Virus record (IMG/VR): IMGVR_UViG_3300046792_000297 | Span: 1-64,000 of that record | Strand: one strand, 5' to 3' | Length of the DNA: 64,000 nt | DNA from: a virus | In this document: positions 12,147-54,100 of the stretch, piece after piece | Position numbering within the stretch: the stretch's first letter is position 1 | Layout of the letters: every line of letters begins with the position of its first letter | Made by a program: the position numbers and the translations under genes | The notes under the pieces: generated by a model | What the model saw: only the letters and a program-made list of their open reading frames with translations | Told to the model about the DNA's origin: nothing | Databases searched by the model: none

Positions 12147-12172
12147 CTGAATAATGATTATTGGGACCGGAT

Positions 12173-38632: not shown

Positions 38633-40408
38633 ATGTCCAAGCGCCGCAAACAATCCGGGGCGCTGGCCAAGTTTCCCGTCAACGACGGTTCCCTGCCCGA
38701 GATGCGGCAGCCCATCGCCATCGACTCCTACTCCAACCCGGCGGCCCGCCTGGGCATGGGCACCACCAACCTGGCCGAGCAGTCGAGCTACCCGCTGGTG
38801 CGGATCACCGAGGACTACCCGCTCATCCTCTCGCTCTATCGCGGTTCGTGGATCGTGCGCCGGGTGATCGAGACCATCCCCGACGACATGCTCAAGTCCT
38901 TCCCGGTGCTGGACTCGGAGATCAACCCCGACCTGCTCAAGCGGTTCGAGAAGATCGTGCGCAAGACGGGCACACTGAACAAGCTGCGCTCGGCGGCCAA
39001 GTGGGGCCGCTTGTTCGGCGGCGCAGCCGCCATCATCGTGATCGCCGGGCACGACGACCTGGCCCAGCCGCTGGAGTTGGACGACATCGAGCCGGGAGCC
39101 TACAAGGGGCTGATCCCGCTCGACCGCTGGAGCGGCATCATACCGGGGCCGGAACTGAATCAGGACATCGAGGACACGGTCAACTTCGGGCTGCCGATCT
39201 ACTACAACGCCATCATGGACGCGGGCAACGCCAGGATTCATCACAGCCGCGTGCTGCGCTTCATCGGGCGTGAACTGCCGCAGTGGGAGCGGCAGGTGGA
39301 ACTGAACTGGGGCATGTCGGAAGTCGAGCTGATCTTCGACGAGTTGCGCAAGCGCGACTACAGTTCGTGGAACATCGTTTCCCTCTTGACACGGGCGCAG
39401 ATACTCTCGGTCGAAGAGCCGCAACTGGCCGCCCTGATGTCGGGCGCGGGCGGTTCGAACGAAGCCTACAACAACTTCGTCCGCCGCATGGAGTCGATCT
39501 CGCAGTTGCTCAACAACCAGGGCCTGCTGGTGCTGGGCAAGGACGGCAAGCTGAACCAAAACAGCTACACCTTCGGCGGCATCGCCGACGTTTACCACGA
39601 GTTCATGAAGGACCTCTCGGCGGCCTGCCAGATTCCCTACGAAGTGATCTTTGGGCGCGAGTCCGGGCTGGGCTCGAACGGCGAGAGCGGGCTGCAACTC
39701 TACTACGACATGATCGAGCAGAAGCGCGGCACCGACCTCGACCCGCAGATGGATCAGTTGATTCCCGTCATCGCCATGAGCGCGTTCGGCGAAGTGCCCG
39801 ACGACCTCGATCACCACTGGCAGCCGGTACGCTCGATGAGCGACAAGGAACGCGCGGAACTGGCCAAGGCGACCGGCGACAACATTGTGGCCTACTTCAA
39901 CGCCGACCTGATGACCAAGAAGGAAGCGCGGGAGGAGATACAGCAGTCGTCGAGCACCACCGGGCTGGGCACCAACCTGAGCGACGAGGCTGTGGCCGCG
40001 ACGCCCGACAAGTACGCCAGCGAACTGGGCGGCGGCGAAGGAGGGATGCCAGGCATGGGCGGACCGGGCGGGATGCCAGGTGGCCCACCGGGCGAGCCTG
40101 GCGAGGGCGAACCACCCAAGCCAGGCGGGGAAAACCCGCAGTTAGGCGCAGGAAAGCCAGCAGGCGGCCTGGGCGGGCCTGGCGAGGCAGCCGGGCCGAG
40201 AGGCGTGGCCAACGAAGAGGCTCCCGCCAACACGCCGCGCGAGCTAACCGCGCCTGCGCATCGTCCGCAACTGGGCATGGGCGGCGAGAACCCGTTCGCC
40301 CGCAAGCCGGTCGAGGATGACCAGACGGGGACTTCGCGCTATCAGCCGCCTGCGGCACGGCAGCATGAAGCGCCGACTGCGAGGCAGCATGAACTCCCTG
40401 ATCGCTAA
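38633..40408 (+). CDS. portal protein (DUF1073 type) with low-complexity tail
   Basis: LYR.SWIVRRVIE..PDDM, WGRLFGG, IHHSR, IP...IFG...GL...GE. Confidence 0.92.
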   Translation: MSKRRKQSGALAKFPVNDGSLPEMRQPIAIDSYSNPAARLGMGTTNLAEQSSYPLVRITEDYPLILSLYRGSWIVRRVIETIPDDMLKSFPVLDSEINPDLLKRFEKIVRKTGTLNKLRSAAKWGRLFGGAAAIIVIAGHDDLAQPLELDDIEPGAYKGLIPLDRWSGIIPGPELNQDIEDTVNFGLPIYYNAIMDAGNARIHHSRVLRFIGRELPQWERQVELNWGMSEVELIFDELRKRDYSSWNIVSLLTRAQILSVEEPQLAALMSGAGGSNEAYNNFVRRMESISQLLNNQGLLVLGKDGKLNQNSYTFGGIADVYHEFMKDLSAACQIPYEVIFGRESGLGSNGESGLQLYYDMIEQKRGTDLDPQMDQLIPVIAMSAFGEVPDDLDHHWQPVRSMSDKERAELAKATGDNIVAYFNADLMTKKEAREEIQQSSSTTGLGTNLSDEAVAATPDKYASELGGGEGGMPGMGGPGGMPGGPPGEPGEGEPPKPGGENPQLGAGKPAGGLGGPGEAAGPRGVANEEAPANTPRELTAPAHRPQLGMGGENPFARKPVEDDQTGTSRYQPPAARQHEAPTARQHELPDR

Positions 40409-41660
40409 CGGCCTGGAGGACTGGACGCTGGCGGTCGACGCCGACTTTGATGAGTCGGCAGTCAAGCGGGTTAGCAAAGGCAAGGAAGGCGGCGGGCAGT
40501 TCACGTCCAAGGGCGGCGGCGAAGAGAAGGGCGAGGAAGCCTACTTCGCGAGTGGTATTGGACCGGGAGAAGAAGCGGAGCCGGGTTACGAGCCGCCTGC
40601 CAAGAAACTGACGCCGGGTCAGAAAGCGGCGGCGACCAAGGCTGGCAAGAAGGTAATGGCCGCAGCGGCAGCGGTCCACCAGAAGACAGAAGCCGCGCAG
40701 CCGCCACAGCCCGTCACAGCCTCGAAGCATCCGAACTGGGCCGCGATGTCGCCGGGGCAAAAGGCCGCCTGGACGAAGAAGCAGAACCAGGCGGCCAACA
40801 ACAAAAAGATTCAGGAAGCGGCAAAGGCCACACCGGCCCAGCAGAAGCAGGCGGAGCAGGCGCTGACGGCGGCGGAGCAGAAGGGCCACAAGCCGCTCTG
40901 GGTCAAAGCCACGGTGAACGGCGAACCCCAAATCTTCAAGCTCCAAGGCGTGCCCAGCGGCCTGGATAGTACGGCCAGCGTGCAGAAGCTGCTGGGCGAA
41001 CAGCCCGATAAGTGGGGCGAGCTACACCCGGTTAGCGTTCAGAACGTGTCGCTGTGGAATGAATCGAAACCTCTGCCTCCCGCTTTCGAGACCGTCACGG
41101 CAGAGCAGAAGGCCATCGACAAGCTGGAAACCGAGAAGTACGAAGAGGCCAAAGCGGCGGTCCTGGCCAGCGGCCCGATCACTAGTAGCGAGTCACTAAG
41201 CGACGACATCATCTCTTCCATCAAGAGCTACACTGACGGCAGCTACCTGGCCCTGAATAAGGCGCTGCGAACCGGGCAGCCTCTGCAAAGCCACCAGGCC
41301 GTAATGGCGGCCAACCTGGACAAAGCCATTCGGAACAACAAGGTGCTGAGTGAGCGCAAGGTTTATCGTGGGCTTACGGATGCCGAAAAGTTCTTCGGCC
41401 CGACCGTGAAGATCGGCACCATCGTGATTGACAACGGCTTCATTTCAGTCAGCAAACACAGGGACACCGCCGATAACTTCGCGGGCTACAACGGCAAGGT
41501 GTGCGTGATTTCGCTGCCCAAGGGCAGCCCGGCGCTGGACATAGAGGCGTGGAGCTTGCTTGGCGATAGTGAGAAAGAAGCCCTATTACCTCGTGGTTCA
41601 ATGTTCAAAGTCACCAACGTGAGCGGCAAGGAGGTTCACCTTGAGTATGCCAACTATTGA
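40389..41660 (+). CDS. ADP-ribosyltransferase (VIP2/Alt-like) with shared N-terminal leader
   Basis: YT..SY..LN.ALR, VYRG, GFISVS, EKEALLPRG (R-S-ExE). Confidence 0.9.
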   Translation: MNSLIANGLEDWTLAVDADFDESAVKRVSKGKEGGGQFTSKGGGEEKGEEAYFASGIGPGEEAEPGYEPPAKKLTPGQKAAATKAGKKVMAAAAAVHQKTEAAQPPQPVTASKHPNWAAMSPGQKAAWTKKQNQAANNKKIQEAAKATPAQQKQAEQALTAAEQKGHKPLWVKATVNGEPQIFKLQGVPSGLDSTASVQKLLGEQPDKWGELHPVSVQNVSLWNESKPLPPAFETVTAEQKAIDKLETEKYEEAKAAVLASGPITSSESLSDDIISSIKSYTDGSYLALNKALRTGQPLQSHQAVMAANLDKAIRNNKVLSERKVYRGLTDAEKFFGPTVKIGTIVIDNGFISVSKHRDTADNFAGYNGKVCVISLPKGSPALDIEAWSLLGDSEKEALLPRGSMFKVTNVSGKEVHLEYANY

Positions 41661-41832
41661 CCCCGAGCGGCTGAAGCGTTACCAGTGGGACCAGGACTCG
41701 CTCACCGTGGCCAGCGTGGGCACGGGCGAGGAAGTCAAGCTCGACCAGCCCAAGGAGGCCAAGAAGGACGACCAGGCCAAGGACCAGGCCATCTTCTCCA
41801 ACTCGCTCGACGTGATGCTGGACGAGGAATAA
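41647..41832 (+). CDS. small acidic protein, putative ART inhibitor, with C-terminal copy of the leader motif
   Basis: overlaps ART stop; GGAGG upstream; ends AKDQAIFSNSLDVMLDEE. Confidence 0.7.
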   Translation: MPTIDPERLKRYQWDQDSLTVASVGTGEEVKLDQPKEAKKDDQAKDQAIFSNSLDVMLDEE

Positions 41833-42752
41833 TGATTAGCTGCCTGATCGCCAACGGCTTGGAAGACTGGACCCTGGCGGTCGACGACTTCAAGGAAGCG
41901 GCGGTTCCGCGCGACGAGTCGGGCAAGTGGACCGGCAAGGGCGGTTCGAGCGGCGAAGCCAAGCCCCTGAACGCGGCGCACAAAGCCTGGGCCACGCGCA
42001 AAGCTAAACAGCAGGCGGCGCAATCGAAGAAGCCGGTCGACTATCTGGCCAAGAAGGTCGGCGGGCAAGGGGGCTCCAATCCGGGCGGGACCTATGAGGG
42101 CAGTGACGGCAAGAAACGCTACGTCAAGTTCTACAAGAACATGGCGCAGGGTCGGGCGGAATGCACGGCGGACACTATCTACAACGACCTGGGCATCGGC
42201 GCACACAAGAGCGACGTGTTCGAGGCGGACGGCAAAGAGGCGTTCGCGGCGGAACTGATCGACGGCGGCGACCTGCTCAAGGATGTGGGCCTGAACAAGG
42301 AGAACGCTCGCGCCATCATGGAAGGCTTCGCGGCAGACGTGCTCATGGCCAACTGGGACAGCGTCGGCCTGGTCAACGACAACATCCTGCTCAAGGATGG
42401 CAAAGCCTACCGCATCGACAACGGGGCCACCTTCACGCACCGCGCGATGGCGTCCAGTCCGCCCAAGCCGGAAGGGCTGCTGCACAAGATCACCGAATGG
42501 GACGGGCTGTTCAACCCCAACATCAACGCGCAGTTCAGCCAGGTCGCCAAGGCCGCCGGATACAAATCGCCCAGCGACATCCCCGACATCAAGGCGCAAG
42601 TGGAGAAGATCGTCAAGCTCCGCGACCAGAGCGGCGGGTGGGACAAGTACCTCCAGGGCAAAGCGCCGTTCCTGTCCGACCAGGAGCGAAAGCAGTATGC
42701 CGGAATGCTGGACAGCCGCACCAAGCTACTGAGGGAGAAAGTCCAGGCGTGA
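41832..42752 (+). CDS. HipA/PI3-PI4-kinase-fold protein with shared leader and KAWATRK
   Basis: GGSNPGG.Y...YVK...AE; D..MANWD...NIL...RIDNG. Confidence 0.75.
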   Translation: MISCLIANGLEDWTLAVDDFKEAAVPRDESGKWTGKGGSSGEAKPLNAAHKAWATRKAKQQAAQSKKPVDYLAKKVGGQGGSNPGGTYEGSDGKKRYVKFYKNMAQGRAECTADTIYNDLGIGAHKSDVFEADGKEAFAAELIDGGDLLKDVGLNKENARAIMEGFAADVLMANWDSVGLVNDNILLKDGKAYRIDNGATFTHRAMASSPPKPEGLLHKITEWDGLFNPNINAQFSQVAKAAGYKSPSDIPDIKAQVEKIVKLRDQSGGWDKYLQGKAPFLSDQERKQYAGMLDSRTKLLREKVQA

Positions 42753-42762
42753 AGGGGTGGCG

Positions 42763-43626
42763 ATGAGAGATTGTCTGATCGGTAACGGCCTGGAGGATTG
42801 GACCCTCACCCTGGCGCTCGACGAGGGCGACTTCAAGGAGGAGCAGCACCCGCGCGACGAAACCGGCAAGTTCTCGCTGGGCAAAGGCGAGTCGACCGAG
42901 GAAGCCTTCAAGCATCCCACGACCGGCGAGTACGCGCCCAAGCGTTCGCAGCGCCACCAGGCCATTGTGGACAAGATCGTGGCGGGCAAGAAGTCCAGCG
43001 GAGCGCCCACCGCCTACATCATGGGCGGCGGATCGGCTTCGGGCAAGTCGACCGGCTTCAAGAAGAAGTTCGCCCGCAAGATGCGGATGGCGCTGGCGCA
43101 CATCGACTCCGACGCCATCAAGAACCATCTTCCCGAGTACGAGAGGCTGAAGCAGATTGATCCCGAGAAGGCCGCCTACCGGGTGCATGAGGAGTCCAGC
43201 CACATCGCCAAGAAGGCGCTGGCGGCGGCCATTGCCGGGAAGCTCGACCTGGTCTACGACTCGACTGGCGCGGGCGGCGGCACGCAGGACATGGCCAAGC
43301 GGCTCAAGGGCGAGGGTTACAAGGTGCACGTGGTCTACTTCGACATTCCCATACCGGAGGCCAAGGTGCGGGCCGGGAAACGGGCGGAGAAAACCGGGCG
43401 GCACATTCCCGAGCACGTGATCCAAGGTTCGCACAAGGGCAGCGCCAAGAACTTCATGGAGATGACCAAGGGCGGTCACATCGACAAGATGAGCCTCTAC
43501 GATACGACCGAGCGCGTGCCCACGCTGGTCTACTCCAAGGAAGGTTCACGCCCTGGTATGATTATGGAAGGTGAGAAATGGAAAGAGTACATGAAGAAGG
43601 CGGGAGTGGAGGAGAACCAGAAGTGA
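42763..43626 (+). CDS. zeta-toxin-like P-loop kinase with shared leader
   Basis: MGGGSASGKST, IDSDAIK..LPEY, VHEES, YDST, R...TGR. Confidence 0.88.
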   Translation: MRDCLIGNGLEDWTLTLALDEGDFKEEQHPRDETGKFSLGKGESTEEAFKHPTTGEYAPKRSQRHQAIVDKIVAGKKSSGAPTAYIMGGGSASGKSTGFKKKFARKMRMALAHIDSDAIKNHLPEYERLKQIDPEKAAYRVHEESSHIAKKALAAAIAGKLDLVYDSTGAGGGTQDMAKRLKGEGYKVHVVYFDIPIPEAKVRAGKRAEKTGRHIPEHVIQGSHKGSAKNFMEMTKGGHIDKMSLYDTTERVPTLVYSKEGSRPGMIMEGEKWKEYMKKAGVEENQK

Positions 43627-43745
43627 TCCACCACTACACCGACGACACCGATTCCGACGTATTCCAAGACAAGGACGACCTGGCCGAGTTCGATGCCATG
43701 CTGGATAAAGCCAAGCAGGCGGCCAAGCAAAAACCCACCCAGTAA
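43623..43745 (+). CDS. 40-aa acidic protein, putative antitoxin of the zeta-like kinase (not in ORF track)
   Basis: GTGA overlap; GGAGGAG upstream; MIHHYTDDTDSDVFQDKDDLAEFDAMLDKAKQAAKQKPTQ. Confidence 0.6.
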   Translation: MIHHYTDDTDSDVFQDKDDLAEFDAMLDKAKQAAKQKPTQ

Positions 43746-43806
43746 TTCCCCTCACATTCTGACCTTCTTCCGGCACCGGGAGAACCTCGACCCACGGAGA
43801 GAGCGC

Positions 43807-44049
43807 ATGGCCGACTGGGACGGAGCCCTCCAGGCTCCGCAGGGGATGTTTCGCGTGATTGGCGAGGACGAGCTACAGACACCAGCCGTGCGCTCGTGGA
43901 TCGGCGACTACCGCTCGCTGGCTAGCGCCCGGCGGGTGGCCAACGACCACGCTACGCCGCTGAATCCGGTAGTCGTATTCGATGACCAGAGCAAGACCCA
44001 GTGCCTCACCTGGGGCGACGTCGAAGTGGACGCGGAGGGCATCGTATGA
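43807..44049 (+). CDS. hypothetical protein
   Basis: GGAG upstream; coupled to next gene. Confidence 0.65.
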   Translation: MADWDGALQAPQGMFRVIGEDELQTPAVRSWIGDYRSLASARRVANDHATPLNPVVVFDDQSKTQCLTWGDVEVDAEGIV

Positions 44050-45473
44050 GCGTGACAGGGGGAACCACCGGTAGCTCGATCACGCTCGGCAGCCTGGGGC
44101 TGGTCAAGTACAGCGACGACGAGGTTGGCTGGGGCACGGGCTGGAACGGCAACATGGACACCATCGACGCGGCGATCTCCAGCCTCCAGGTGGGCGGGTC
44201 GCAGGTGCAGGCCGACTGGGATGCGACCTCGGGCCTGGCCGAGATTCTCAACAAACCGGACCTGGCTCCGGTCGCGACTTCGGGCGACTATGCCGATCTG
44301 GTCGGCGTGCCCGCGCTGCCGCACAACTTCAGTTCGCAGCCGCACCTGTTCCTGAACGGCTACAACGCCATCCTGGGCGTGTTCTCGGCGGCCCAGGCGA
44401 CCGCGTCGGACGTCTCGGGGCTGGCACCTATCGCCATCTCGGGCAGCTACAACGACCTCACCAACAAGCCAGTGCTGCCTGCGACTCAGGTGGCAGTGCC
44501 CAATCGCTTCTTCACCGCCTACAGCGCGACGACTGGCTTGTTTACGGAGGCGCAGCCTACAGCGCTGGACGTCTCCGGCCTGGCCGCCGTGGCAACCTCC
44601 GGCTCCTACACTGATCTCATCAACAAGCCGGTCCTGGCGGCTAACTCGCCTGCGGTGGCTCACCAGTTTCTCACCAGCTACGACAACATCACCGGGGCGT
44701 TCACCAAGGCCCAACCTGGCGCGGCGGATGTCAGCGGGCTGGCTCCTTCGGCAACTATCGACACCACCAACGCGCTCAACATCACTTCGGGCACGCTGGC
44801 CGTGGCGCGGCTGCCTGTCATTCCGGCCACGCAGATCAGCGGGCTGGCGCTGGTGGCCACTTCGGGCTCCTATCTCGACTTGAGCAACAAGCCGGTGCTG
44901 GCAGCGACCATTGCCGCGACACCGAACAACTTCCTGACCGCCTACAACGCGGTCACGGGTATCTTCACCAAGGGCCAACCGGCAGCGACGGACGTAACCG
45001 GCCTGGCCACGGTCGCCACGACCGGCAGCTACACCGACCTGATCAACAAGCCCATCCTGCCAGTCAACACGGGCAGCACGCCGCACCAGTTCTTCATCGC
45101 CTACGACAACACGACCGGCGGCTTCCTCAAGGCGCAGCCAGCGGCGGCGGATGTGACTGGTTTGGCGACGGTCGCCACTTCGGGCTCCTACAACGACCTC
45201 ACCAACAAACCAGTCTTGTCCACCGTGGCAGGCTCGGGCTCCTACCTGGACCTCACGCACAAGCCGACCTACTCATTCTGCCCAGGCACGACGCCGGGTA
45301 CGGTGTTCGTCTCGCCAGGCGCGGTGATCGCGGTGACCTACAACGGCACCGTGCTGCCGCGCGGCGTGGCCGCTCCCAAGCTGAGCTACACGCTGGCCGG
45401 GGATAACGTGACGATCACGCTCAACTTCACTGCCGAAGCCGGAGACCGAGTCGATGCGTTCTGTACTACTTAG
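44046..45473 (+). CDS. fibre-like repeat protein
   Basis: repeated GLA.VATSGSY.DL.NKP units; W..NMDTIDAAI N-terminus. Confidence 0.8.
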   Translation: MSVTGGTTGSSITLGSLGLVKYSDDEVGWGTGWNGNMDTIDAAISSLQVGGSQVQADWDATSGLAEILNKPDLAPVATSGDYADLVGVPALPHNFSSQPHLFLNGYNAILGVFSAAQATASDVSGLAPIAISGSYNDLTNKPVLPATQVAVPNRFFTAYSATTGLFTEAQPTALDVSGLAAVATSGSYTDLINKPVLAANSPAVAHQFLTSYDNITGAFTKAQPGAADVSGLAPSATIDTTNALNITSGTLAVARLPVIPATQISGLALVATSGSYLDLSNKPVLAATIAATPNNFLTAYNAVTGIFTKGQPAATDVTGLATVATTGSYTDLINKPILPVNTGSTPHQFFIAYDNTTGGFLKAQPAAADVTGLATVATSGSYNDLTNKPVLSTVAGSGSYLDLTHKPTYSFCPGTTPGTVFVSPGAVIAVTYNGTVLPRGVAAPKLSYTLAGDNVTITLNFTAEAGDRVDAFCTT

Positions 45474-48400
45474 GGCAGTCGGAATAATGATTTTTGTGCT
45501 GGCGGGGCGGGCGGCGGCTCAGAGCAACCCGCACACCCAGATCGCCTGGCCCGCGAACTGCGACGACAGCAACTTCATGACCTACAACGTGCTCTCGAAT
45601 ACCTGCTTCAATGCCGGATCGACTAAACGTCCCATCGCGCCGCTAGCCAACGTTTCCCGGCCCGCGAGTTCCTCGGCCACCGGCGCGGCCATGCCCCAAC
45701 AGGTGATCGCTTTCTTAGGTAATTCGCTGGTCGCGGGTGACACTGGGAGCACCACCGAATTTTGCAATGAAGCAGGGATAGCTTCCACTAACGGACTTGG
45801 TCCTTTATTTATGGCGGGACACCAGTGCCGCCCGGCAACCAACATCACCGTGGACAGCAGTAACAATGTGACCCTGGCGGTCAACAACGCCGACGGGTAC
45901 TTTCAGAATGGTACGCGCTTCACCGCGTATGGTGGGGCAGGAGTGGATGGCGGATGTCTCTACGATTCCTACATCGTCACCAGTGCCACGACAACGCAGA
46001 TCGTATTCCCCAGTGCGCCCAACACGCCTTGCGCTCCGCTCGCCAGCACTCCGGTGGTCGCGAACAATGTTTTGTTGACCACCAGCCTCCAGAGGTTCGG
46101 CCAAAACGGCGGTTCGCTGGATTCATGGTTTAGCACCGTAGGCAACTGGACCTTTTCCGGCTACAAGACTTGGATTCAAGGAGCAATCGCGGCGGGGCAA
46201 ACCCCGATTACCATCATGCGCGATGCGGGAATCATGACCAATTCCACCCGTATGAGCGCAATGGACTATCGGGCCTGGATGGCCGACCTCATGCCGGTGA
46301 TCGCGGCTATCCAGGGCATTAGTGCTACGAATCCGGCAGGAGAAACAGTTTATGTTTCCAGCTTGCCATTCTACATCGACACCGGGAATCCCGAGGCTTG
46401 CAACACCGCTATGACGGCTTCCAGTACAGCGCCGTGTTCGGGAGGTCAGAACACTGGGGCTGGCGGAGTGTATGTTCCACCCGTGCAGATGCCAGCCGGT
46501 GTGCAATATGTCTTCCCTTATGGGACACCGGGAAGCCAGTTTACAACTCCCGCTACGATCACATCGGGAGCCATCAGCGCGGGAGCCAATACGGTAACGA
46601 TCAATCCGTGTCCGCCTGATCTTTGGGGTGGTCCCGGCGATGTGATTCCCACCGCACTCGATTCGAACGGACTGCTACGCAGTCACGGCAACCTGATCCA
46701 GATGGTGGTTGATTCTGCCGCCTCGGCTGCGCAGGAACTTGTTTCGTTGACCGCGATCATCCCCACGGGAGCAACTGGACTGCATAATTGGCAGACTTGT
46801 CAGGTATCGTTCACTGCCGCTTTCGCTCATGCTGCGAACGCACCGATTTATGCCACGCAGTTTACGGCTGACCAGACCTGGGTGCGGTGGAAGCTGCAAA
46901 TCCCTTATGATGTGGCGGCTGCTTATCCCGGCCACATTGAAGTAATAGACACGCTCACCGCGATGGGGCGACAGGTTGCGAATCCCGGCTGGTGGATAGG
47001 GAATGAGCTTCATCCTGGTCTGGGTGGATACGCCAAGATCGGCAACCGGGAATTCACGGCACTAGCGTCCTATCAGCTTGCGCCCAAGCCTCCACCTACT
47101 CCTGATCCTTTAGCGTTTGATTATGCCACGCACCAAGTCAGCTTGCGAACAGGCGCGATTGACATCAACTTTGATCTCGACGCGGCAACGGCGGCTCGTG
47201 CCTTAGCTCTTGGGCACAATTGCGGTATGTACTACAACAAGTGCGACATAGACCCAGCTATGTTTTATCCCTCTGCCCTCTCGCCCACCATGACCTTCAC
47301 TCACGGTACGCAGTTTGCTCGTATGACGATGGCGATTCAATCGGGGCAGAATTTGAGTGGAGACGGGCAAACGGGCGATTTTCTCTATACCAGTGTTGGG
47401 GGTAGCTGGCAACCAACGACACTAACTGCAATGGGGTTTGTTCCCGCCAGCTTACTGGGTTTCAATTTTACCGGCACCCCCCCTGTGGACATGTCTGGCC
47501 GAGGGGCCATCATGCGTCCCTTCTATGCTGATCCGCTACAAGGAGCGAAGTTTGCCGCGCATCCGATCAGTTATCCGCTGAATGGCACCTATAACCTCAA
47601 GGTGGGCACTTCAACAACGAATAACCTGGTGTTTTCCATTCCCGTCGCTCAGAATCCCGCTGTCATTGGCGGGCAGACTCTAACCTGTTTGCAAATCGAG
47701 ATGCAAGCCGGAGACTGGATTGTCACCGCAGGAAACATTCCCGGTTCACAGGCTACCGCCGCCGGGGTGTCCATCCAGTTGCCGACCGGAAGCTGGAATC
47801 CTCTCACCTGCACCTGGACGGACACCAGCGGAACAAACTACAGCGTCTACAACGGCGTGATGGCTACGCTGGTGCAGCAGTTCAGAGCGCCGGATGCAAC
47901 GTTCAGTCTCGTTACCGCGCAGCAAAAAATACAAACACAAGCACTAACTGCGTTACAGGGCGTTCAATCGCCCGGTACGCCCACTGTTATAGGTGTGGTT
48001 GGAGGAGCATTTACAAGCGCAACTACTGGCGGCAATTGCGCGAATGGAACAGCTTACACTCTAGGTCTGGCTTACATGCCTCTTGGTTGGGGAACGGACT
48101 ACACTCATGCAGGTGCGATTCGCACCGTCTATGCAGTCTATACGCCAACTACCGGTACGACAACGGATGTTGTCGGAATCAATATCACTACAGCAGCGCC
48201 CTTTGGTTACACAACGGTAGCCTATCTGCTTATTGGTGGGACTTATTATGCGTTCGGCAAAGCACCGTCCACAGGTGCAGGTGTGATTACGACAACCTGC
48301 CCAGCAACCGGCGCTGGATTGATTGTGGCCAACACTTATGATAACGGCAGTGTGGGCTTTGTAGGCCCGGCATTCAGTTCGAGCGCCCCCCAGACCACTG

Positions 48401-48651
48401 TCAACTGTTCCACTTCAGGAACTGCAATCTTCGCGCAGACGCAAACCGGATCGAGCGAGAAGAAGGTGCTGGTCTATCTGGCGGCTTGCAGCGGCACGGC
48501 CAGCTACACCTTCCCGGTGCCGTTCACCCACTCGCCCAGCGTGTTCGGCTCGGACGATGTGGCGGCCAGCATCGTGACGGCCAAGAGCACGACCGCCGTG
48601 ACGGTGACCGGTGCGCCGTCGACCGGGGCGCTCGTGCTGGACAGCTTCTGA
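45454..48651 (+). CDS. large Cys/Thr/Gly-rich protein with signal peptide and SGNH/GDSL-like hydrolase motifs
   Basis: MRSVLLRAVGIMIFVLAGRAAA-QS; AFLGNSL, GQNG, NELHP..GGY. Confidence 0.7.
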   Translation: MRSVLLRAVGIMIFVLAGRAAAQSNPHTQIAWPANCDDSNFMTYNVLSNTCFNAGSTKRPIAPLANVSRPASSSATGAAMPQQVIAFLGNSLVAGDTGSTTEFCNEAGIASTNGLGPLFMAGHQCRPATNITVDSSNNVTLAVNNADGYFQNGTRFTAYGGAGVDGGCLYDSYIVTSATTTQIVFPSAPNTPCAPLASTPVVANNVLLTTSLQRFGQNGGSLDSWFSTVGNWTFSGYKTWIQGAIAAGQTPITIMRDAGIMTNSTRMSAMDYRAWMADLMPVIAAIQGISATNPAGETVYVSSLPFYIDTGNPEACNTAMTASSTAPCSGGQNTGAGGVYVPPVQMPAGVQYVFPYGTPGSQFTTPATITSGAISAGANTVTINPCPPDLWGGPGDVIPTALDSNGLLRSHGNLIQMVVDSAASAAQELVSLTAIIPTGATGLHNWQTCQVSFTAAFAHAANAPIYATQFTADQTWVRWKLQIPYDVAAAYPGHIEVIDTLTAMGRQVANPGWWIGNELHPGLGGYAKIGNREFTALASYQLAPKPPPTPDPLAFDYATHQVSLRTGAIDINFDLDAATAARALALGHNCGMYYNKCDIDPAMFYPSALSPTMTFTHGTQFARMTMAIQSGQNLSGDGQTGDFLYTSVGGSWQPTTLTAMGFVPASLLGFNFTGTPPVDMSGRGAIMRPFYADPLQGAKFAAHPISYPLNGTYNLKVGTSTTNNLVFSIPVAQNPAVIGGQTLTCLQIEMQAGDWIVTAGNIPGSQATAAGVSIQLPTGSWNPLTCTWTDTSGTNYSVYNGVMATLVQQFRAPDATFSLVTAQQKIQTQALTALQGVQSPGTPTVIGVVGGAFTSATTGGNCANGTAYTLGLAYMPLGWGTDYTHAGAIRTVYAVYTPTTGTTTDVVGINITTAAPFGYTTVAYLLIGGTYYAFGKAPSTGAGVITTTCPATGAGLIVANTYDNGSVGFVGPAFSSSAPQTTVNCSTSGTAIFAQTQTGSSEKKVLVYLAACSGTASYTFPVPFTHSPSVFGSDDVAASIVTAKSTTAVTVTGAPSTGALVLDSF

Positions 48652-48659
48652 GGACCATT

Positions 48660-48881
48660 ATGCCCATCACTGACCTCGAACACGCGCAACTTCGGGTGGA
48701 GCATGGGCAGTTGAAGTTGCAACTGCTGGAAGCGCAGAGCCGGATCGTGCAGCTTCAACACACGCTGCTCGCTAAGGAACTGGAGCAGGCGACCAAAGAT
48801 TATCAGGCGCTCAAGGAGCAGGCCGATGCCCAGGTCGACCAGACCCTCAACCTCAACGGCCATCTTCGCGAACAGTCTTGA
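48660..48881 (+). CDS. small coiled-coil protein
   Basis: GAGG upstream; heptad L/Q pattern. Confidence 0.7.
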   Translation: MPITDLEHAQLRVEHGQLKLQLLEAQSRIVQLQHTLLAKELEQATKDYQALKEQADAQVDQTLNLNGHLREQS

Positions 48882-49326
48882 CTACTGGACAGACTCCCAG
48901 TGGGCGGCGGACGCGGCGCAGTCTACCTTTCGCCGCCTGCATGGTTTGTTAATTGTTGTTGAAAATCCACAATACTCGCTGCGCCAGGGACGCGGCTGGA
49001 TGTCTGCCGCACCCGCTGATTACGGCTACATCGCAGGCACCAAGGGAGCCGACGGCGACGAAATCGACTGCTACGTGGGTGACAACCCGGAGAGCCGGAT
49101 CGCCTATATTGTGGATCAGAATAAAGTCGGCTCGCCGTTAGAGTTCGACGAACATAAGGTATTCCTAAACTACCCTTCCCTGGCTGCGGCCAAGCAAGAC
49201 TACCTCGACGGGCACACGGACGGCGCGAAGATTCTTCGCGCCATTACGGCTGTCGACCTGAAGACTTTGAAAGCGTGGCTGAAGCAGAGTAACCATGAGC
49301 GACCCTACAGCGAAACCGCAAGATAA
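48826..49326 (+). CDS. inorganic pyrophosphatase-like protein (phage polyvalent-protein type) with shared leader
   Basis: IVVENP..S.R, DYGYI.GT.GADGDEIDCYVG, FDEHKV; leader IFANSLDYW...AADAA. Confidence 0.85.
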   Translation: MPRSTRPSTSTAIFANSLDYWTDSQWAADAAQSTFRRLHGLLIVVENPQYSLRQGRGWMSAAPADYGYIAGTKGADGDEIDCYVGDNPESRIAYIVDQNKVGSPLEFDEHKVFLNYPSLAAAKQDYLDGHTDGAKILRAITAVDLKTLKAWLKQSNHERPYSETAR

Positions 49327-49450
49327 TGGACCGGGCAAGAGCCTGACCATCGTGATCTGCCCCCGGTGTGGCGCACTGATCTCCGAGGAACTGAAGGCCA
49401 AGCACAACGAGTGGCACGAGCAGCTACGGCAGATCGGTATGCCGGAATGA
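49295..49450 (+). CDS. 51-aa C2H2-like zinc-finger protein (not in ORF track)
   Basis: CPRCG...HNEWH. Confidence 0.55.
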   Translation: MSDPTAKPQDNGPGKSLTIVICPRCGALISEELKAKHNEWHEQLRQIGMPE

Positions 49451-49462
49451 AAGGTCGCGCCC

Positions 49463-50743
49463 ATGAACGCCAGCTTTGCCAACTCCCTCGACGGGATCGA
49501 CTGGGACGAGTCAGCCTGGGCGCTCGACGCCGAGTTCGATGAATCGGCCATCAAGCGTGTAAGCGCGGGCAAGGAAGGCGGCGGCCAGTTCGCGTCCGGC
49601 GGCGGAGCCGCAGGAGCCGAAGCTGGAGCCGAGGCGGGCGAACGCGAGCCCGTGGCGGGCGGTGAACAGGAAGCGGGCGCAGAGGGCGAGGAAGGCGAAG
49701 AGGACGAAGAGGAAGACGAAGAGGCGGGAGCCAAGCAGAAGGCCCGCAAGTCGGCCCACCTGGTAGCGGCGGGCGAGAACCGCGAGCAGTGGCCGGAACA
49801 CATTCGCAAGATGGTCATCCCACCCGCCTGGACCGACGTCCAGATCGCCATGTCGCCCGACGCCGACCTGCAAGTGGTGGGCCGGGACAAGAAGGGCCGC
49901 AAGCAGTACGTCTACTCGGAGCAGTTCAAGAACTCGCAGGCGGCGCTGAAGTACGCCCGCATGGAGTCGCTGCGCCAGGAGAAGCCGGGTATCATCGGCC
50001 AGCTTGCGGAGATGCACCAGAGCGCCGACCGCAAGCTGCGCGACCACGCCGACTGTGCCACGCTGGTCATGAAGATGGGCATCCGGCCTGGCTCGGACAC
50101 CGACACCAAGGCGGAGAAGAAGGCTTACGGCGCGAGCACGCTCGAAGGCAAGCACGTGGTGGTCGAGAACGGCCAGGTCTTCCTGCGCTTCACGGGCAAG
50201 AAGGGCGTCGACCTGAACCTGCCGGTCGAGGACAAGACGCTGGCCGCCAACCTGGCCAGCCGGGCCAAGAAGGCCGGGGCGGAGGGGCGGCTGTTCGGCG
50301 ACGTGTACTCCGGTTCGCTGCTCCAGTTCGTCAAGAAGGACCTGGATCACGGCGGCTTCAAGACCAAGGACTTCCGTACCCTGCTGGCCAACGAGTTGGC
50401 CGTCAAGGCCATGAAGGGCGTGGCCAAGCCCAAGGATGCCAAGCAGTACAAGGCGGCGGTCAAGGAAGTGGCCACGCACGTGTCCAGCCGGTTGGGCAAC
50501 ACACCCACGGTCGCGCTCCAGTCCTACATCCACCCGGCGGTGTTCGGCGAGTGGAAGGGGGCCGCCGACGTACCGGCGGTCCAGGCCAAGGGCAAGAAGA
50601 AGGGTAAAGCCAAGGGGAAGAAGAAGCCCGCCGCCAAGCCCGCCGAGCCCGGCAAGCTGAGTGGAGCCGCGCTGGCCTGGGCCACGCGGCGAGCCGCCAA
50701 GGAGGCCGCCCATGCCGGAACCGCAGCCGCAGCCGCAAGCTGA
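49463..50743 (+). CDS. DNA topoisomerase IB with shared leader and AWATRR tail
   Basis: IPPAWTDV, GRD.KGRKQY.Y, GIRPG, F.GKKG, KDFRT, LGNT, SYIHP. Confidence 0.95.
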   Translation: MNASFANSLDGIDWDESAWALDAEFDESAIKRVSAGKEGGGQFASGGGAAGAEAGAEAGEREPVAGGEQEAGAEGEEGEEDEEEDEEAGAKQKARKSAHLVAAGENREQWPEHIRKMVIPPAWTDVQIAMSPDADLQVVGRDKKGRKQYVYSEQFKNSQAALKYARMESLRQEKPGIIGQLAEMHQSADRKLRDHADCATLVMKMGIRPGSDTDTKAEKKAYGASTLEGKHVVVENGQVFLRFTGKKGVDLNLPVEDKTLAANLASRAKKAGAEGRLFGDVYSGSLLQFVKKDLDHGGFKTKDFRTLLANELAVKAMKGVAKPKDAKQYKAAVKEVATHVSSRLGNTPTVALQSYIHPAVFGEWKGAADVPAVQAKGKKKGKAKGKKKPAAKPAEPGKLSGAALAWATRRAAKEAAHAGTAAAAAS

Positions 50744-50909
50744 CGAGGAACTGCCCGAACTGCACTTCGGACGCGCCGACGCGCCGCCGCTCGACTGGAG
50801 GAAGTACAAAGATGATTCCCTGGATGATGACGAGCCGCTTGCGCAAACGCCTGCGAGCACGGTTGCAATCCTCGGCTTCGACCCCCTCGACCTCGACAGC
50901 GACGAATAA
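50712..50909 (+). CDS. small acidic protein, putative topoisomerase partner
   Basis: overlaps topo IB end; DDDE.LAQTP..TVAILGFDP. Confidence 0.7.
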   Translation: MPEPQPQPQADEELPELHFGRADAPPLDWRKYKDDSLDDDEPLAQTPASTVAILGFDPLDLDSDE

Positions 50910-50931
50910 TGATTTTTCCGGGGGTGCGCTC

Positions 50932-51147
50932 ATGTCGCCGCCGCTCGACTGGAGAAGGTACAAGGTACACATCGACCCGGACGCCATCGTGATCCAAGGC
51001 AAGCGCATCGACCTGGGCGTGTTCCTGGCCCTGATCGACGCCGACAAGCGGCTGCTCTGGCGCTTCATTGAGCGCGAGGGCAAGATCGAGGCCGTGTGCT
51101 TCGACGAACAGCAAGTGATCTGGATCGACCAACCACCGGCAGAATAA
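50932..51147 (+). CDS. hypothetical protein sharing PPLDWR.YK with the preceding ORF
   Basis: 27-nt near-identical repeat at 50783 and 50937. Confidence 0.6.
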   Translation: MSPPLDWRRYKVHIDPDAIVIQGKRIDLGVFLALIDADKRLLWRFIEREGKIEAVCFDEQQVIWIDQPPAE

Positions 51148-51174: not shown

Positions 51175-54100
51175 ATGAAGCGAATCCTGGGCTGGACCCT
51201 CTTGCTCTTCGTGTGCCAGGCCGCGCTCGCGCAGATGGCGCAAACCCCCAACCTGGGCTTGAACCTGCCGCCGCAGGGCTACCCCAACTGGGCCAACCTC
51301 AACAACCAGAACTTCGTCACCATCGACGCCGTAGTCGGCGGCTTGCAAAAGCAGTGGCAGGGCACCTGGACCTCGGCGGTCACCTACCAACCGGCGCAAA
51401 TCGTCACCTGGCAAGCCTCGTCCTACATCTCCATCACGGGCACCAACGCCAACAACCAGCCCGACCTCTCGCCTGGCTACTGGGCCAAGATCGGCACGAC
51501 GGCGGCGGGAGCCGTGAATGAGTTGCAGATGAATGCCGGGGGTAGCTTCGCCGCGACCACCGGCATGACCTACGACCTCACCAGCAATACGCTGCGTGCG
51601 CCGCAGGTCAACGTGAGCGGCAACATTCAGGGCGTCTCGTTGAAGTTGAGCGGGCTGGCTCCCGGCTCGGCATTGGTCTGCACCAGTGGCACCGACGGCA
51701 CGCTGACCAATGGAGCGTGCAGCGTTCCACCCGCCTCTGTGGCCTGGCCGCCAAGCTGCACGGGGGTCTACGCGCCTGCTACCAATACCTGCGTAGCGGT
51801 GGGAACGGCGGCCAATCCCGCAGGCAACGTCAAGGAAGTGCAATTCAATGCAGGAGGGACGTTTGGCACTGATTCTGCCATCACCATCGACAACTCCACG
51901 CACACGCTCGGCTCACAAAACGTTTCCGGCAGCGCCAACACCGTTCTCTATGTGAAAGCTCCTCCATACAACGCCAAATGCGACGTTCATGTAGGCGGGT
52001 TGGGAGATGCGGTCATTACTTCCGGCACGACCACTTACGGTGGTTTCTCGACTGCGGATGTGGGCAAGACCGTCAAGGGCGTCTCATCTCAAGCTAATGG
52101 GAGCGTGTCTTATGTTGGCAAGATTGTTTCATGGGTAGGCGGGACCACCACGCTCAGCCCCGCCGCCACCATCACGCTTCATTATTGGGAGTGGGCAACC
52201 GACGATCATGACTCACTCATGGCAGCGCTCAATGATGCGTATGCTCAGAACGTAGAAATCCAGCTTCCCGCTGGGCAGTGCTTAACTAGCACGCTTGTCT
52301 GGAAAGGGCAGTCCTTTCACGGCTCTGGAAGGGGCGTAAGCTATGTCAGAGGTATGCCGGGACAAGATGTGTTTCAGATGCCAGAGTATGGCACCAGTTA
52401 CTCCATTACGTCATGGTCGATCACTGGGAACGTGGCGACTTTTCAGACTACTAGCAATAATCTGCTAGCAGGGAACGTCGTTACTCTCGGCGGCTTCGGA
52501 ACATCCACGTTTTTCAATCTGCAAACCGTGACTGTCACTTCGGCTACAGGGACTCAATTTGTTGCGCCCATCACTCATGCTAATGGCTCTGCCACAGAAG
52601 CTGGCTTTGCGGCAACTGGTGGAGCATTTCCTATCACGTCGTGGTCGATCACTGGAAACGTGGCAACTGTTCAAGTAGCTAACAATTTTCCAGCGGGAGC
52701 CAATATTACTTTAAGCAGGTTTGGGACTTCCACATTTTTCAACGCTCAAAATGTGACCATCCTCGCGGCGGGTCTTTCTCCAACTCAGTTCTCTTTTAAC
52801 TTTACTCATGCTAACGGTTCGGCCACGGAGTCTGGACTGGCGACAACCCAAGCTACTTCCATACGCCAGTTCAACGTTCATGATCTCAGTATCGTAATCG
52901 ATTCGACGGTGAACGCGGCAGCGACGGCGGCAGGTGGGAACAACACTTTTCCCTACCGCATAGGCGGAACCTTTCAGGGGATGACGCCGTTCACTCCTCC
53001 CCCCGCTCCCGGTGTTCCAGTATTCGGAACGTGTGGCGCTGGGGGAGGGTACGCCGACGCTGGCGGAACTCTGGTGACTATCACCTGCCCCCTTACTGGG
53101 TTACCCCTCAACCTTGCCAGCTTAGAGCCGACGTGGGTGATCAATGCTCCAATTACTGTCGATGGAGCAGGAGCGGCTGGCGGAGTATATGCAGGTCACA
53201 TTCAAAGTATTGTCAACGATGGTGTCACCAGCGTTTCTGGTTCTGGAGGAAGCGGGATGACGGTAGGCACTTACCCGCTCTCCTTCTCTGGAGGGGGCGG
53301 GTCTGGCGCATCGGGGACCATCGCGGTGACAAACGCCACTACTTATGTGGTGCTTCTTAGGGTTGGAGGCGCAGGCTACACTTCTCCGCCAACGGTAACC
53401 GCTGCTACTGGAGGGACGCCGCCGACGTTTACAGCCGCCATCGGAACTAGCTGCGCTGGTGGGACCATCTGCACCGTGCGCGTGGATAATGCCATTGCTA
53501 CATCAGTGAGTGCCACTACCGGTACTTGGTTAACCGCACAGACGCCACCGTGGTACTTCGGCAACGCTGGCATCGCGATGCCGTGTTCTGGTGGGGGTGC
53601 TTGCAATGGAGTCGGCTTCAGTGTTATTCGCAACGTAAACTTTGATCAGGTAGCCAACGGCTATATCGGCAGAAGCCACACTACGGGTATCTTCACGCAG
53701 GCGCAGATGTACGGAGATAGCTTCGAGAACCTAGTCTTCACTCAGCTCTACGGAGGTTACATCGAGGTGCAGCCTCCTGCTGGAAATCTCAGCACCGCCG
53801 ATACCATGTCATTCAAGGATATTAGCTTTTACAACGAGAACTTCCCGATCATGACTTACAACGGCAATGATCGTGTGATCAACGGCATGAATATCTATCA
53901 AGAGCTTCTCCTTTCGGAGGGGCCGTTTTTCTTCAGCAGGCAGCAGGCTCTTTCGGGGTATCTAAACTGGGCGATCAACAGCTTCTATATCGAAGGCGGA
54001 GCTTCTACCAACGGAGAATGGGCGCGTTTTCAAGGTGGCCCTTTTCATATGAGGGCGGCCAGCTTCGGCGGCGGGAACCCGGCTGGATCATACATCGAGT

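Follow-up and report, generated by a model that had tools for sequence, protein, structure and literature searches.

Phages that inject enzymes into their hosts must keep those enzymes harmless beside replicating DNA and beside the ~100 kb of DNA condensed in the head, and how packaged enzymes are kept harmless is known mainly from T4. The question is raised by a locus of an uncultured phage (IMGVR_UViG_3300046792_000297, whole genome 104 kb), of which a stretch of 64,000 nt, termed the window, was analysed. An ADP-ribosyltransferase (ART), a zeta-type kinase and a type IB topoisomerase (topo IB) are probably head-packaged cargo enzymes of this phage, and a tiny acidic open reading frame (ORF) overlaps the 3′ end of each of their genes. 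What might these small proteins do? The most likely reading is that they are enzyme-specific masking partners, which is well supported for ORF3, behind topo IB, only. The features concerned are:

40389..41660, + strand: ART cargo gene, N-terminal leader MNSLIANGLEDW... (Pfam ADPrib_exo_Tox, 3e-17)
41647..41832, + strand: ORF1, an acidic 61-aa protein, coupled both to ART upstream and to the gene downstream
41828..41837, + strand: junction word AATAATGATT, containing the ORF1 stop and the next gene's start
41832..42752, + strand: 306-aa cargo protein, family unassigned, leader MISCLIANGLEDW (leader motif scan)
42757..43626, + strand: leader-bearing cargo gene for a P-loop kinase of the zeta-toxin type (Pfam Zeta_toxin, 9e-28)
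43623..43745, + strand: ORF2, 40 aa, acidic body and basic tail, an orphan
43807..44049, + strand: 80-aa gene (MADWDG...FRVIGED); L001, a related phage, has a conserved copy after a RelA/SpoT cargo gene
48826..49326, + strand: InPase (pyrophosphatase of the polyvalent-protein type) cargo gene, leader ...AIFANSLDYW (Pfam InPase, 1.4e-31)
49463..50743, + strand: topo IB cargo gene, leader MNASFANSLD (Pfam; alignment to PDB 2f4q and 2h7f)
50712..50909, + strand: ORF3, 65 aa, member of a topo IB-linked module family
50905..50914, + strand: junction word AATAATGATT, containing the ORF3 stop
50932..51147, + strand: ORF4, 71 aa, also conserved downstream of the L001 module

The cargo genes are united by a leader motif, [IFLVM][ASG]N[GSA]L[DE], of which the + strand of the 104-kb genome has six copies. 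Five of the six copies lie at enzyme N-termini (ART, the 306-aa protein, zeta, InPase and topo IB), and the sixth is the C-terminus of ORF1. No small acidic partner ORF accompanies the 306-aa protein or InPase, two of these five enzymes. The 306-aa protein may be kinase-like, judging by the appearance of its motifs, and its homologue in phage L072 is fused behind topo IB and the module. A Pfam search of these enzyme proteins found ART, Zeta_toxin and Topoisom_I domains and no MuF domain; in L001, MuF is a separate gene.

ORF1, ORF2 and ORF3 are confirmed as real small acidic coding genes that are coupled to the enzyme genes. The initial annotation had placed all three correctly, and each overlaps the stop codon of the upstream enzyme. 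ORF1 runs from ATG 41647 to its stop at 41830-41832. Its first 14 nt lie within the end of the ART gene, whose stop is at 41658-41660, and its TAA runs into the start codon of the gene that follows (TAATG, 41832). A further possible start is TTG at 41641. ORF2 starts with the GTG at 43623, sharing GTGA with the zeta stop, and GGAGGAG lies 10 nt ahead of it; the frame is open upstream as far as ATG 43578, and the public gene call gives the identical 40-aa protein. The 80-aa gene that follows starts at 43807 rather than 43693 and thus does not overlap ORF2. ORF3 begins at ATG 50712, 6 nt behind AAGGAGG, and overlaps the 3′ end of topo IB by 32 nt; the N-terminus of ORF4 repeats the ORF3 segment PPLDWR[KR]YK.

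The description of all three as D/E-rich also holds: D and E make up 15/61, 10/40 and 18/65 residues of ORF1, ORF2 and ORF3, with net charges of -7, -5 and -14 and pI values of 4.36, 4.47 and 4.05, respectively. Outside the overlaps, third-position GC is 0.95, 0.79 and 0.74, and the codon log-odds per codon are 0.49, 0.43 and 0.17 (ten large genes, 0.01-0.45); the other five frames score lower in each case, by a small margin for ORF3. Pairwise comparison reveals no relationship among the three proteins, as would be expected of cognate partners. The ART and zeta cargo genes of other phages are likewise followed by small overlapping ORFs, which are mostly acidic.

The family of ORF3 offers the richest evidence. 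It comprises a module of ~50 aa with the consensus LPDVHFG..D..P.DWR...DDDEEL..TP.DVVA.LGFDPL, and its defining motifs (HFG...DWR...DDDEEL...TP..VV..LGFDP) are all present in ORF3, 3′ of topo IB. Relatives include 10 database proteins and, in IMG/VR, 38 loci, 36 of which have the module directly behind topo IB. Across a 34-row alignment G20, D40, L43, T46, P47 and LGFDP are invariant or nearly so, and the median dN/dS of 0.13 (10 pairs) indicates that the family is clearly under purifying selection. No paper and no Pfam, PHROG or NCBIfam entry was found for it, and the family is widespread and apparently undescribed.

The linkage holds in the reverse direction, in which 80 independently sampled phage topo IB loci, the best of 216, were scored for a downstream module. 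It lies on the same strand within 400 nt in 67/80, making the proposed co-occurrence of this pair strongly positive; among the remaining loci, six have the module 0.5-2.4 kb downstream and one is cut by the contig end. Four of the 80 have no module downstream, two of them carrying one on the other strand. The module start overlaps the topo IB stop by 1-14 nt in most loci, and the module occurs in three forms: on its own, joined to the head protein that follows, or continuous with the topo IB frame. Stand-alone modules account for 41/67 adjacent loci and end 0-40 residues (mostly 0-12) past LGFDP. In 23/67 (19/56 distinct sequences), the module is the N-terminal part of the variable head protein that follows, with partners including InPase, ART, NUDIX, ferritin-like, DUF6098, an ATLF-like peptidase, a 2H phosphoesterase with S78 protease, and DUF2213. 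Fusions in frame with topo IB are seen in L032, L060, L072 and L114, and in L010, L017, L027, L033 and L036 the portal and topo IB form a single open frame. Fused modules are followed by the element ..EF.E.EHPR...GKF, so that the module occupies the slot of the short LIANGLEDW or FANSLD segment in the cargo of the window.

Where would ORF3 act on the enzyme? Alignment to PDB 2f4q and 2h7f gives R208, K246, R305, N346 and Y355 as the catalytic positions of topo IB, the first four corresponding to variola-type R130, K167, R223 and H265. The multimer modelling proposed in the initial annotation, run for this pair, gave ipSAE values of 0.66, 0.68 and 0.74 (median 0.68 vs 0.00 for the best of three controls); the ipSAE mark is reached by 58/80 solved complexes and 2/110 mismatched pairs, counts that hold only roughly here because the complex model was fed our own alignments. 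At least 84% of contacts are common to the runs, and the pLDDT of the partner is at least 70. The predicted site, supporting binding at the active site, is the DNA cleft, where ORF3 covers four of the five catalytic positions; the interface takes in R208, K246, R305 and N346, plus S354 beside Y355. ORF3 residues 15-20 are modelled as pairing with topo IB 147-151, the equivalent of poxvirus Q69-Y72, and the interface includes the Q148-Y151 strand. An AlphaFold2 model of the natural cis fusion from L114 has a mean pLDDT of 87, the TP..VV..LGFDP half of the module reaching 73-82 and its N-terminal half being weak (47-61). ORF3 alone has a pLDDT of 0.26 in the Atlas, and its model confidence is higher only with topo IB present. 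Structure predictors are prone to putting acidic peptides into basic clefts.

For ORF1, two homologues were found (P0017 and L024), and genomic position was compared in L024 alone. The protein has a conserved N-terminal core, ER..RY.W...D..V..VG.G, and a C-terminal tail, AIFSNSLDVMLDEE. Between the tail segment AIFSNSLDVMLD and the start of an L001 leader, AIFANSLDVMLDG, 11/12 residues are identical, and at the DNA level 26/30 bases match the RelA/SpoT cargo leader of L001 from TTC onward; the tail thus resembles the leader version of a related phage, unlike the leaders in its own genome. The motif scan bears out the claim that ORF1 ends in the address motif; 'reverse order' is a loose description, the tail being the first half of the leader placed at a C-terminus. 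P0017, a fragment, is 68% identical to ORF1 and retains the leader-like tail (9/10 residues), the middle of the protein having diverged with an indel. In L024, a 45-aa ORF behind a homologous ART (the ARTs are 46-50% identical) matches the N-terminal half of ORF1 (BLASTP E 4e-5), starts at an ATG within the same ...LEY codons and overlaps its ART by 14 nt. Two conserved arginines use differing synonymous codons, and the core is conserved at the protein level; the L024 protein has no leader-like tail. With one positional homologue and one fragment, co-occurrence of the ART pair is more thinly supported than that of the ORF3 pair.

A search of 5.8 billion clusters gave no homologue of ORF2, and it matched nothing in Pfam, even at E 10, no Epsilon-antitoxin and no PHROG or NCBIfam entry. 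It resembles one equivalently placed ORF elsewhere only marginally (E 0.045-0.1), and the zeta-type cargo genes of other phages are followed by small, mostly acidic ORFs unrelated to it. The ORF2 segment LAEFDAMLD resembles the leader part ..LDAEFDES...

How might such proteins work? We give about even chances to the view that the coupled small acidic proteins are each specific to their own leader-bearing cargo enzyme and mask it. Translation of each would be coupled to the 3′ end of its cargo gene in the late head operon. ORF3, a peptide that is probably disordered by itself, is predicted to bind topo IB in the DNA cleft. In the model, its HFG segment would pair with the DNA-recognition β-strand of the topo IB N-terminal domain, its acidic run would cover the catalytic Arg/Lys and its LGFDP end would pack against the catalytic-tyrosine helix. 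From this pose we infer that ORF3 competes with DNA and inhibits the enzyme. ORF3 would hold topo IB off phage DNA during head assembly, and masking would probably last within the head until the enzyme is set free in the next host. ORF1 is probably the equivalent partner for ART, and its copy of the first half of a cargo leader may route it along the cargo path, allowing co-packaging; ORF2 may be the zeta counterpart. The earlier proposal that all three silence their enzymes in assembly thus fares best for ORF3, for which linkage and the cleft model both fit silencing, less well for ORF1 and least for ORF2, which lacks homologues.

Alternatively, the module could serve not to inhibit but as a tether or packaging adaptor, docking on topo IB, which many phages have fused to the portal or MuF, and coupling the next cargo or head protein to it; stand-alone modules would be passenger-free docking peptides, and ORF1 an adaptor that brings ART to the packaging route. 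This we consider unlikely. The fusions to variable downstream proteins fit a tether and a cap equally, and occupation of the leader slot and the frames shared by topo IB and portal speak for a tether, but the 41 stand-alone modules have nothing to tether, and a mere handle need not fill the DNA cleft and catalytic residues as in the modelled pose. The roles of tether and inhibitor are mutually compatible. Another reading, distinctly unlikely, takes ORF2 and the ORF1 tail for functionless leader or linker leftovers of polyvalent-gene splitting or cassette swaps. The third-position GC of ORF1 and ORF2 and codon scores matching those of large genes argue against this, as do the retention of the ORF1 tail in P0017 despite its diverged middle, the conserved core in L024 and the purifying selection on ORF3. 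It gains from the orphan status of ORF2 and its leader-like segment, from an ORF1 tail nearly identical to the L001 leader and not to those of its own genome, from the ORF1 and ORF3 stops both lying within the genome-wide word AATAATGATT, and from the single-ORF fused versions of the same cassettes in L032 and L072.

That the small proteins are classical immunity proteins, in the MuF or toxin-antitoxin sense, which act in the cytoplasm to protect the producer, lysogen or kin, is very unlikely. Small downstream genes are the rule for MuF toxins with toxin-type domains such as ART and zeta, and the mutual unrelatedness of the three proteins would suit this reading; however, none of the enzymes contains a MuF domain, topo IB is not a classical toxin, and ORF2, which has no Epsilon-antitoxin match, lies downstream of zeta, on the opposite side from epsilon and PezA, whose genes are upstream. 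The module, moreover, is found in frame with topo IB or fused to head-internal proteins (S78 protease, DUF2213). Such fusions would locate the module in the procapsid, not loose in the cytoplasm, which argues against classical free immunity genes. Of the MuF analogy drawn in the initial annotation, the small gene in the cognate downstream position stood and the MuF fusion did not; the module is fused to the following head protein in about a third of loci, and sometimes is in frame with topo IB.

Masking partners remain the preferred reading. A broader form of it, in which head-packaged enzymes carry dedicated 'safety caps' that make up an in-capsid immunity and loading system so far undescribed, is doubtful. 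The ORF3 module would then act as a portable docking peptide for topo IB, occluding the cleft within the DNA-filled capsid, and, when fused to another protein, would also load that protein onto the portal-anchored topoisomerase; ORF1 would be the same device for ART, its N-terminal half binding the enzyme and its tail being of leader type. An ORF3-type peptide, linked to a head-module topo IB in most sampled loci, is a handle testable in vitro. Such a peptide would act on a type IB topoisomerase as a natural protein inhibitor or docking peptide, and would speak for topo IB in the virions of many uncultured phages, as in poxviruses. Some very small phage ORFs, usually dismissed, would be conserved functional partners, and more might be sought by a simple rule: inspect whichever gene overlaps a cargo enzyme's stop codon.

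Iyer, Burroughs, Anand, de Souza and Aravind 2017 (PMC5512222) described phage-type polyvalent proteins and effectors fused to portal or MuF, work from which the InPase Pfam family derives; a term search of that paper finds 'topoisomerase' once, in the reference list, and nothing that resembles a small acidic partner. As in polyvalent systems, ART, zeta-type kinase, InPase and RelA/SpoT stand beside portal/MuF genes, with packing and injection predicted for them. Unlike polyvalent proteins, the enzymes of the window are separate ORFs, each with its own leader, and the window is a split version of the fused form seen in L032 (1393-aa open frame) and L072. The leaders recall the T4 capsid targeting sequence and internal proteins (IPI-III, Alt) in that a short N-terminal address is used and ART is among the cargo; we know of no leader-bearing mini-protein or cognate small partner in T4.

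Jamet and colleagues reportedly described, in 2017, small immunity genes directly downstream of MuF polymorphic toxin domains. The small genes here are similarly placed directly behind a head-associated enzyme and are domain-specific, but no enzyme here is fused to MuF, the ORF3 module may be joined to the protein on either side, and neutralization is putative. In epsilon/zeta and PezA/PezT, the antitoxin gene lies upstream of zeta and encodes 90-160 aa; the locus shares with them a zeta-type kinase beside a small acidic gene, but ORF2 is downstream, has 40 aa and shows no match to the Epsilon_antitox or PezA family. Ocr, ArdA, Ugi, phi29 p56 and T4 Arn are small acidic phage inhibitors that mimic DNA. 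ORF3 has no sequence relation to these proteins; like them, it is small and strongly acidic (-14 in 65 aa, pI 4.05) and is modelled in a DNA-binding cleft. The DNA mimics display carboxylates, arranged like the phosphates of DNA, on a rigid, stable fold, whereas ORF3 alone is predicted to be disordered, and they target host enzymes, whereas the putative target of ORF3 is the phage's own.

Three small open reading frames lie directly behind genes for cargo enzymes, that is, enzymes with an N-terminal leader that are probably packed in the head. ORF1 follows the ART gene, ORF2 a zeta-toxin-type kinase and ORF3 a type IB topoisomerase (topo IB).

41647–41832: ORF1, 61 aa; 14-nt overlap with the ART stop, and a terminal TAATG that is the start of the next gene
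43623–43745: ORF2, 40 aa; GTGA overlap with the zeta stop, with GGAGGAG 10 nt upstream
50712–50909: ORF3, 65 aa; 32-nt overlap with the topo IB gene, with AAGGAGG 6 nt upstream

Each of the proteins is acidic, ORF1 with a net charge of −7, ORF2 of −5 and ORF3 of −14. Outside the overlaps, third-position GC is 0.95, 0.79 and 0.74, and the codon scores are 0.49, 0.43 and 0.17, comparable with those of ten large genes (0.01–0.45). The other five frames score lower in each case, by a small margin for ORF3, and all three proteins are present as called genes in a public protein collection. The initial annotation described three small acidic ORFs coupled to cargo enzymes; coordinates, stop overlaps, net charge and codon signal confirm this. 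The start of the gene after ORF2 is corrected from 43693 to 43807, and this gene therefore does not overlap ORF2. Its 80-aa product (MADWDG...FRVIGED..., 43807–44049) is 47% identical to that of L001:12440–12643 in a related phage; its gene follows zeta and ORF2 in the window, but in L001 comes immediately after a RelA/SpoT-type cargo, and it is a further candidate for a small protein associated with cargo. The TAATG at 50909, behind ORF3, is ruled out as a gene start, since its frame ends after 27 codons.

None of the small ORFs has a credible family match in Pfam (to E 10), PHROGs or NCBIfam, the sole line returned being SR7P, whose E of 0.034 falls well short of its cut-off. Among GenBank phages, megablast finds no close relatives of the region and tblastn no match to ORF3 or ORF1. 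The idea that the three are diverged copies of one module was dropped, since ORF3 reached a probability of at most 0.1% in profile comparison against either ORF1 or ORF2.

The viral record is 103,954 bp long with direct terminal repeats, and the window is its first 64 kb, with a GC content of about 62%. The cargo genes follow the portal gene in this order:

Plus strand, upstream of the cargo genes: portal gene (PF06381, 2e-85)
Plus strand, after the portal: ART gene (ADPrib_exo_Tox, 3e-17)
Plus strand, after ART: 306-aa protein of no known family
Plus strand, after the 306-aa protein: zeta-toxin-type kinase (9e-28)
Plus strand, between zeta and InPase: three proteins without a Pfam match, one shortened here to 80 aa
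Plus strand, before topo IB: InPase (1.4e-31)
Plus strand, after InPase: type IB topoisomerase (Topoisom_I, 9e-18)

Five proteins of this cassette share an N-terminal leader, the first part of which is [IF][AS]N[GS]L[DE]; the second part, usually present, is of the type ..DF.E....R...GK..G.F. Across the whole genome the plus strand carries the leader word six times, at five enzyme N-termini and, as the sole C-terminal case, at the end of ORF1, bearing out the address motif that had been noticed there. The InPase family was defined in work on phage 'polyvalent proteins', which are predicted to be virion-packed (PMC5512222), and because of this membership the cassette is taken as a split form of the polyvalent-protein kind. 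Between 40000 and 52000 no Rfam family is found and promoter- and terminator-like sites do not exceed chance; the cargo region reads as one late operon. In two phage loci fetched for comparison, single open frames (L072:2404–5586 and L032:2736–6914) join topo IB, the ORF3 module (an ORF3-type family of about 50 aa), an HPR...G.F linker and further domains. The L072 frame includes a 50%-identical homologue of the 306-aa protein, and a DUF2213-like N-terminus precedes the other domains in L032; both frames are fused (polyvalent) versions of the split cassette.

Several further features of the region were recorded. Very large head-module proteins of 1065 and 1576 aa, without a Pfam match, are encoded at 45454–48651 and 51175–55905; third-position GC of their genes is 0.61 versus 0.76–0.88 in neighbours, and the 1576-aa protein begins with a signal-peptide-like sequence. 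The peptide KAWATR[RK] (window 41982, 50672 and elsewhere) lies in linkers or at termini of several proteins, the 306-aa cargo and topo IB among them, and is also found in L001 proteins, including the topo IB C-terminus. The 10-mer AATAATGATT occurs ten times in the window versus zero expected (100 shuffles), at 12150, 15920, 20773, 24642, 33451 (minus strand), 37726, 41828, 45483, 50905 and 55904. In the cargo region it falls exactly at gene junctions, where it provides the stop codons of ORF1, a 490-aa gene, ORF3 and the 1576-aa gene, and it could serve as punctuation for regulation or recombination; the L001 homologue of ORF3 ends without it. A direct repeat (50786–50811 and 50938–50963) encoding PPLDWR[KR]YK is common to ORF3 and ORF4, a 71-aa gene 3′ of it (50932–51147, plus strand), and resembles a scar of local duplication or recombination, because the L001 homologue of ORF4 lacks that N-terminal segment.

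The ORF3 family is real and widespread. A word-indexed search returns ten family proteins of 51–74 aa, and a pattern scan of IMG/VR finds 38 loci with the module. The 34-row alignment has the consensus LPDVHFG..D..P.DWR...DDDEEL..TP.DVVA.LGFDP, with G20, D40, L43, T46, P47 and LGFDP fully or almost fully invariant, and ten pairs of moderate divergence have a median dN/dS of 0.13. The topo IB gene stands directly upstream in 36 of the 38 loci, across which the other neighbours vary and portal identity falls to about 21%. Sampling in reverse, by topo IB alone (the best 80 of 216 IMG/VR relatives), the module is found on the same strand no more than 400 nt downstream in 67 loci, near-duplicates included (56 distinct module sequences), and 0.5–2.4 kb downstream in six more; the remainder comprise one locus cut by the contig end, four without the module and two with it on the other strand. 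Co-occurrence of the ORF3–topo IB pair in homologous loci, a check proposed in the initial annotation, is thereby upheld. Across the module-adjacent loci topo IB is 41%–59% identical to that of the window, and in most of them the module start overlaps the topo stop by 1–14 nt. The only cultured phage with a distant topo IB (28% identity) is Bacteroides phage BS162P1, where the gene lies outside any head module and the ORF behind it is unrelated to the ORF3 module.

Among the 67 adjacent cases the module stands alone in 41, ending 0–40 residues (mostly 0–12) after LGFDP, forms the N-terminus of the next protein in 23, and is in frame with topo IB in three (L060, L072 and L114); L032, from the first set of loci, has this arrangement too. 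Downstream, the module is fused to mutually unrelated partners, among them DUF6098, InPase, an ATLF-like peptidase, ART, a 2H phosphoesterase with an S78 prohead protease, DUF2213, NUDIX, a ferritin-like domain and a KptA/PARP-like domain. Several fused proteins carry ..EF.E.EHPR...GKF, the second part of the cargo leader, after the module, and the fused module occupies the position that the short LIANGLEDW or FANSLD segment has in the cargo of the window. The constant feature across module loci is topo IB upstream. By its fusions the module is placed among head-interior proteins. In many uncultured phages, represented by L010, L017 (608–3022), L027, L033 and L036, topo IB itself shares one open frame of about 805–850 aa with the portal, and would there sit on the C-terminal end of the portal.

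A complex of topo IB residues 98–380 (24-row alignment) with ORF3 (34 rows) was modelled, with scores of 0.66, 0.68 and 0.74. The median of 0.68, versus 0.00 for the best of three controls, is a mark that 58 of 80 solved complexes and 2 of 110 mismatched pairs also attain, counts that apply only approximately here because custom alignments were used for the model. The runs have at least 84% of contacts in common, with partner pLDDT of at least 70. No similar complex is known to us, which makes it unlikely that the score merely reproduces a known structure. For this enzyme, the pairing looked for by multimer modelling is thus predicted; the model supports ORF3–topo IB binding without showing it. 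The interface, mapped by alignment to the Deinococcus radiodurans (2f4q) and variola (2h7f) enzymes, includes R208, K246, R305 and N346 (poxvirus R130, K167, R223 and H265) and takes in S354, beside the catalytic Y355. ORF3 residues 15–20 (PELHFG) pair with topo residues 147–151, equivalent to poxvirus Q69–Y72, the strand by which the poxvirus enzyme reads its target sequence, and the ILGFDPL end, with LGFDP at ORF3 residues 54–58, lies against topo residues 330–361. An AlphaFold2 model of the natural cis fusion from L114 has a mean pLDDT of 87 and pTM of 0.82; the TP..VV..LGFDP half reaches 73–82, the HFG...DWR half only 47–61. ORF3 alone has a pLDDT of 0.26 (ESM Atlas). The picture is of a disordered acidic peptide that would fold onto the DNA cleft; the modelled pose suggests that ORF3 blocks DNA access, and competitive masking would be consistent with it.

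For ORF1, an exhaustive profile search of 1.8 billion representatives yields one true homologue, P0017, a 47-aa protein 68% identical to ORF1, encoded on a 6.7-kb contig and probably truncated at its 5′ end. It keeps the N-terminal core LKRYQWD.DSL.V.SVGTGEEV and the tail F.NSLDVML; the middle has diverged, with an indel. Alignment of the ART catalytic domain against IMG/VR finds the L024 contig only (46–50% identity), and a search of genome contigs finds no ART relatives. Directly behind the L024 ART is a 45-aa acidic ORF, the first 26 residues of which match the ORF1 core (BLASTP E 4e-5); like the ORF1 start, its ATG is embedded in the ...LEY codons of ART with a 14-nt overlap, and the codons for two conserved arginines differ synonymously between the phages. 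In its N-terminal half, ORF1 goes with ART and not with the downstream gene, because the latter differs in L024 while the ART-linked ORF recurs. Recurrence of the ART partner thus stands for this half, but the address-like FSNSLD tail is missing from the L024 ORF. FANSLD-type first parts are likewise absent from the readable topo IB and ART leaders of L024, a parallel that, with only two phages, is at most suggestive. The ORF1 tail is closer to the L001 version of the leader than to any in its own genome, matching the L001 RelA/SpoT cargo leader at 26 of 30 bases. Behind a more distant ART, in L071, a 49-aa acidic ORF overlaps the ART stop.

ORF2 has no homologue among 5.8 billion clusters. 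Of fifteen phage loci with zeta-type cargo, at least nine have small ORFs directly behind the zeta gene, most of them acidic. These include one family in L126, L127 and L128 (E 1e-7 and 0.002), a second in L134 and L137 (E 4e-6) and a third sequence common to L129–L132. Only the L134 protein resembles ORF2, marginally (D.SVF.D.DL.EFD; E 0.045–0.1); an acidic body with a short basic tail is common to ORF2 and three post-zeta proteins. This is a recurrence of position and not demonstrated homology.

ORF1, ORF2 and ORF3 are mutually unrelated, each behind a different enzyme, and one unrelated small protein per enzyme is the pattern of candidate cognate partners. For ORF2 and the ORF1 tail, an alternative is that they are leader-sequence leftovers after cassette exchange. 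The linkage of ORF3 to topo IB, the fusions on either side and the model all point to physical binding between the two. A type IB topoisomerase produced late, close to DNA that is being replicated and packaged, and later shut in with that DNA, could nick and religate the genome, recombine it or be covalently trapped on it; a plausible reason for a partner is that it would keep topo IB from acting on the genome it must leave with. The main rival reading is that the module is a docking handle loading other proteins onto topo IB, and this may coexist with a DNA-blocking role. That the module is fused to head-internal proteins, and to topo IB, is easier to reconcile with a partner accompanying the enzyme than with an immunity protein of the cytoplasm.

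Three known systems come nearest: polyvalent proteins (PMC5512222), toxin/immunity pairs of the MuF type (PMC5576092) and DNA-mimic inhibitors that are small and acidic. A term search of the polyvalent-protein paper (PMC5512222) finds 'topoisomerase' once, in the reference list, and no small acidic partner. A full-text literature search for phage topo IB with virion, portal, DNA mimic or inhibitor returned nothing relevant. New here are a modelled ORF3 pose that covers catalytic residues, a tally of stand-alone versus fused modules, and the ART-linked ORF1 family.
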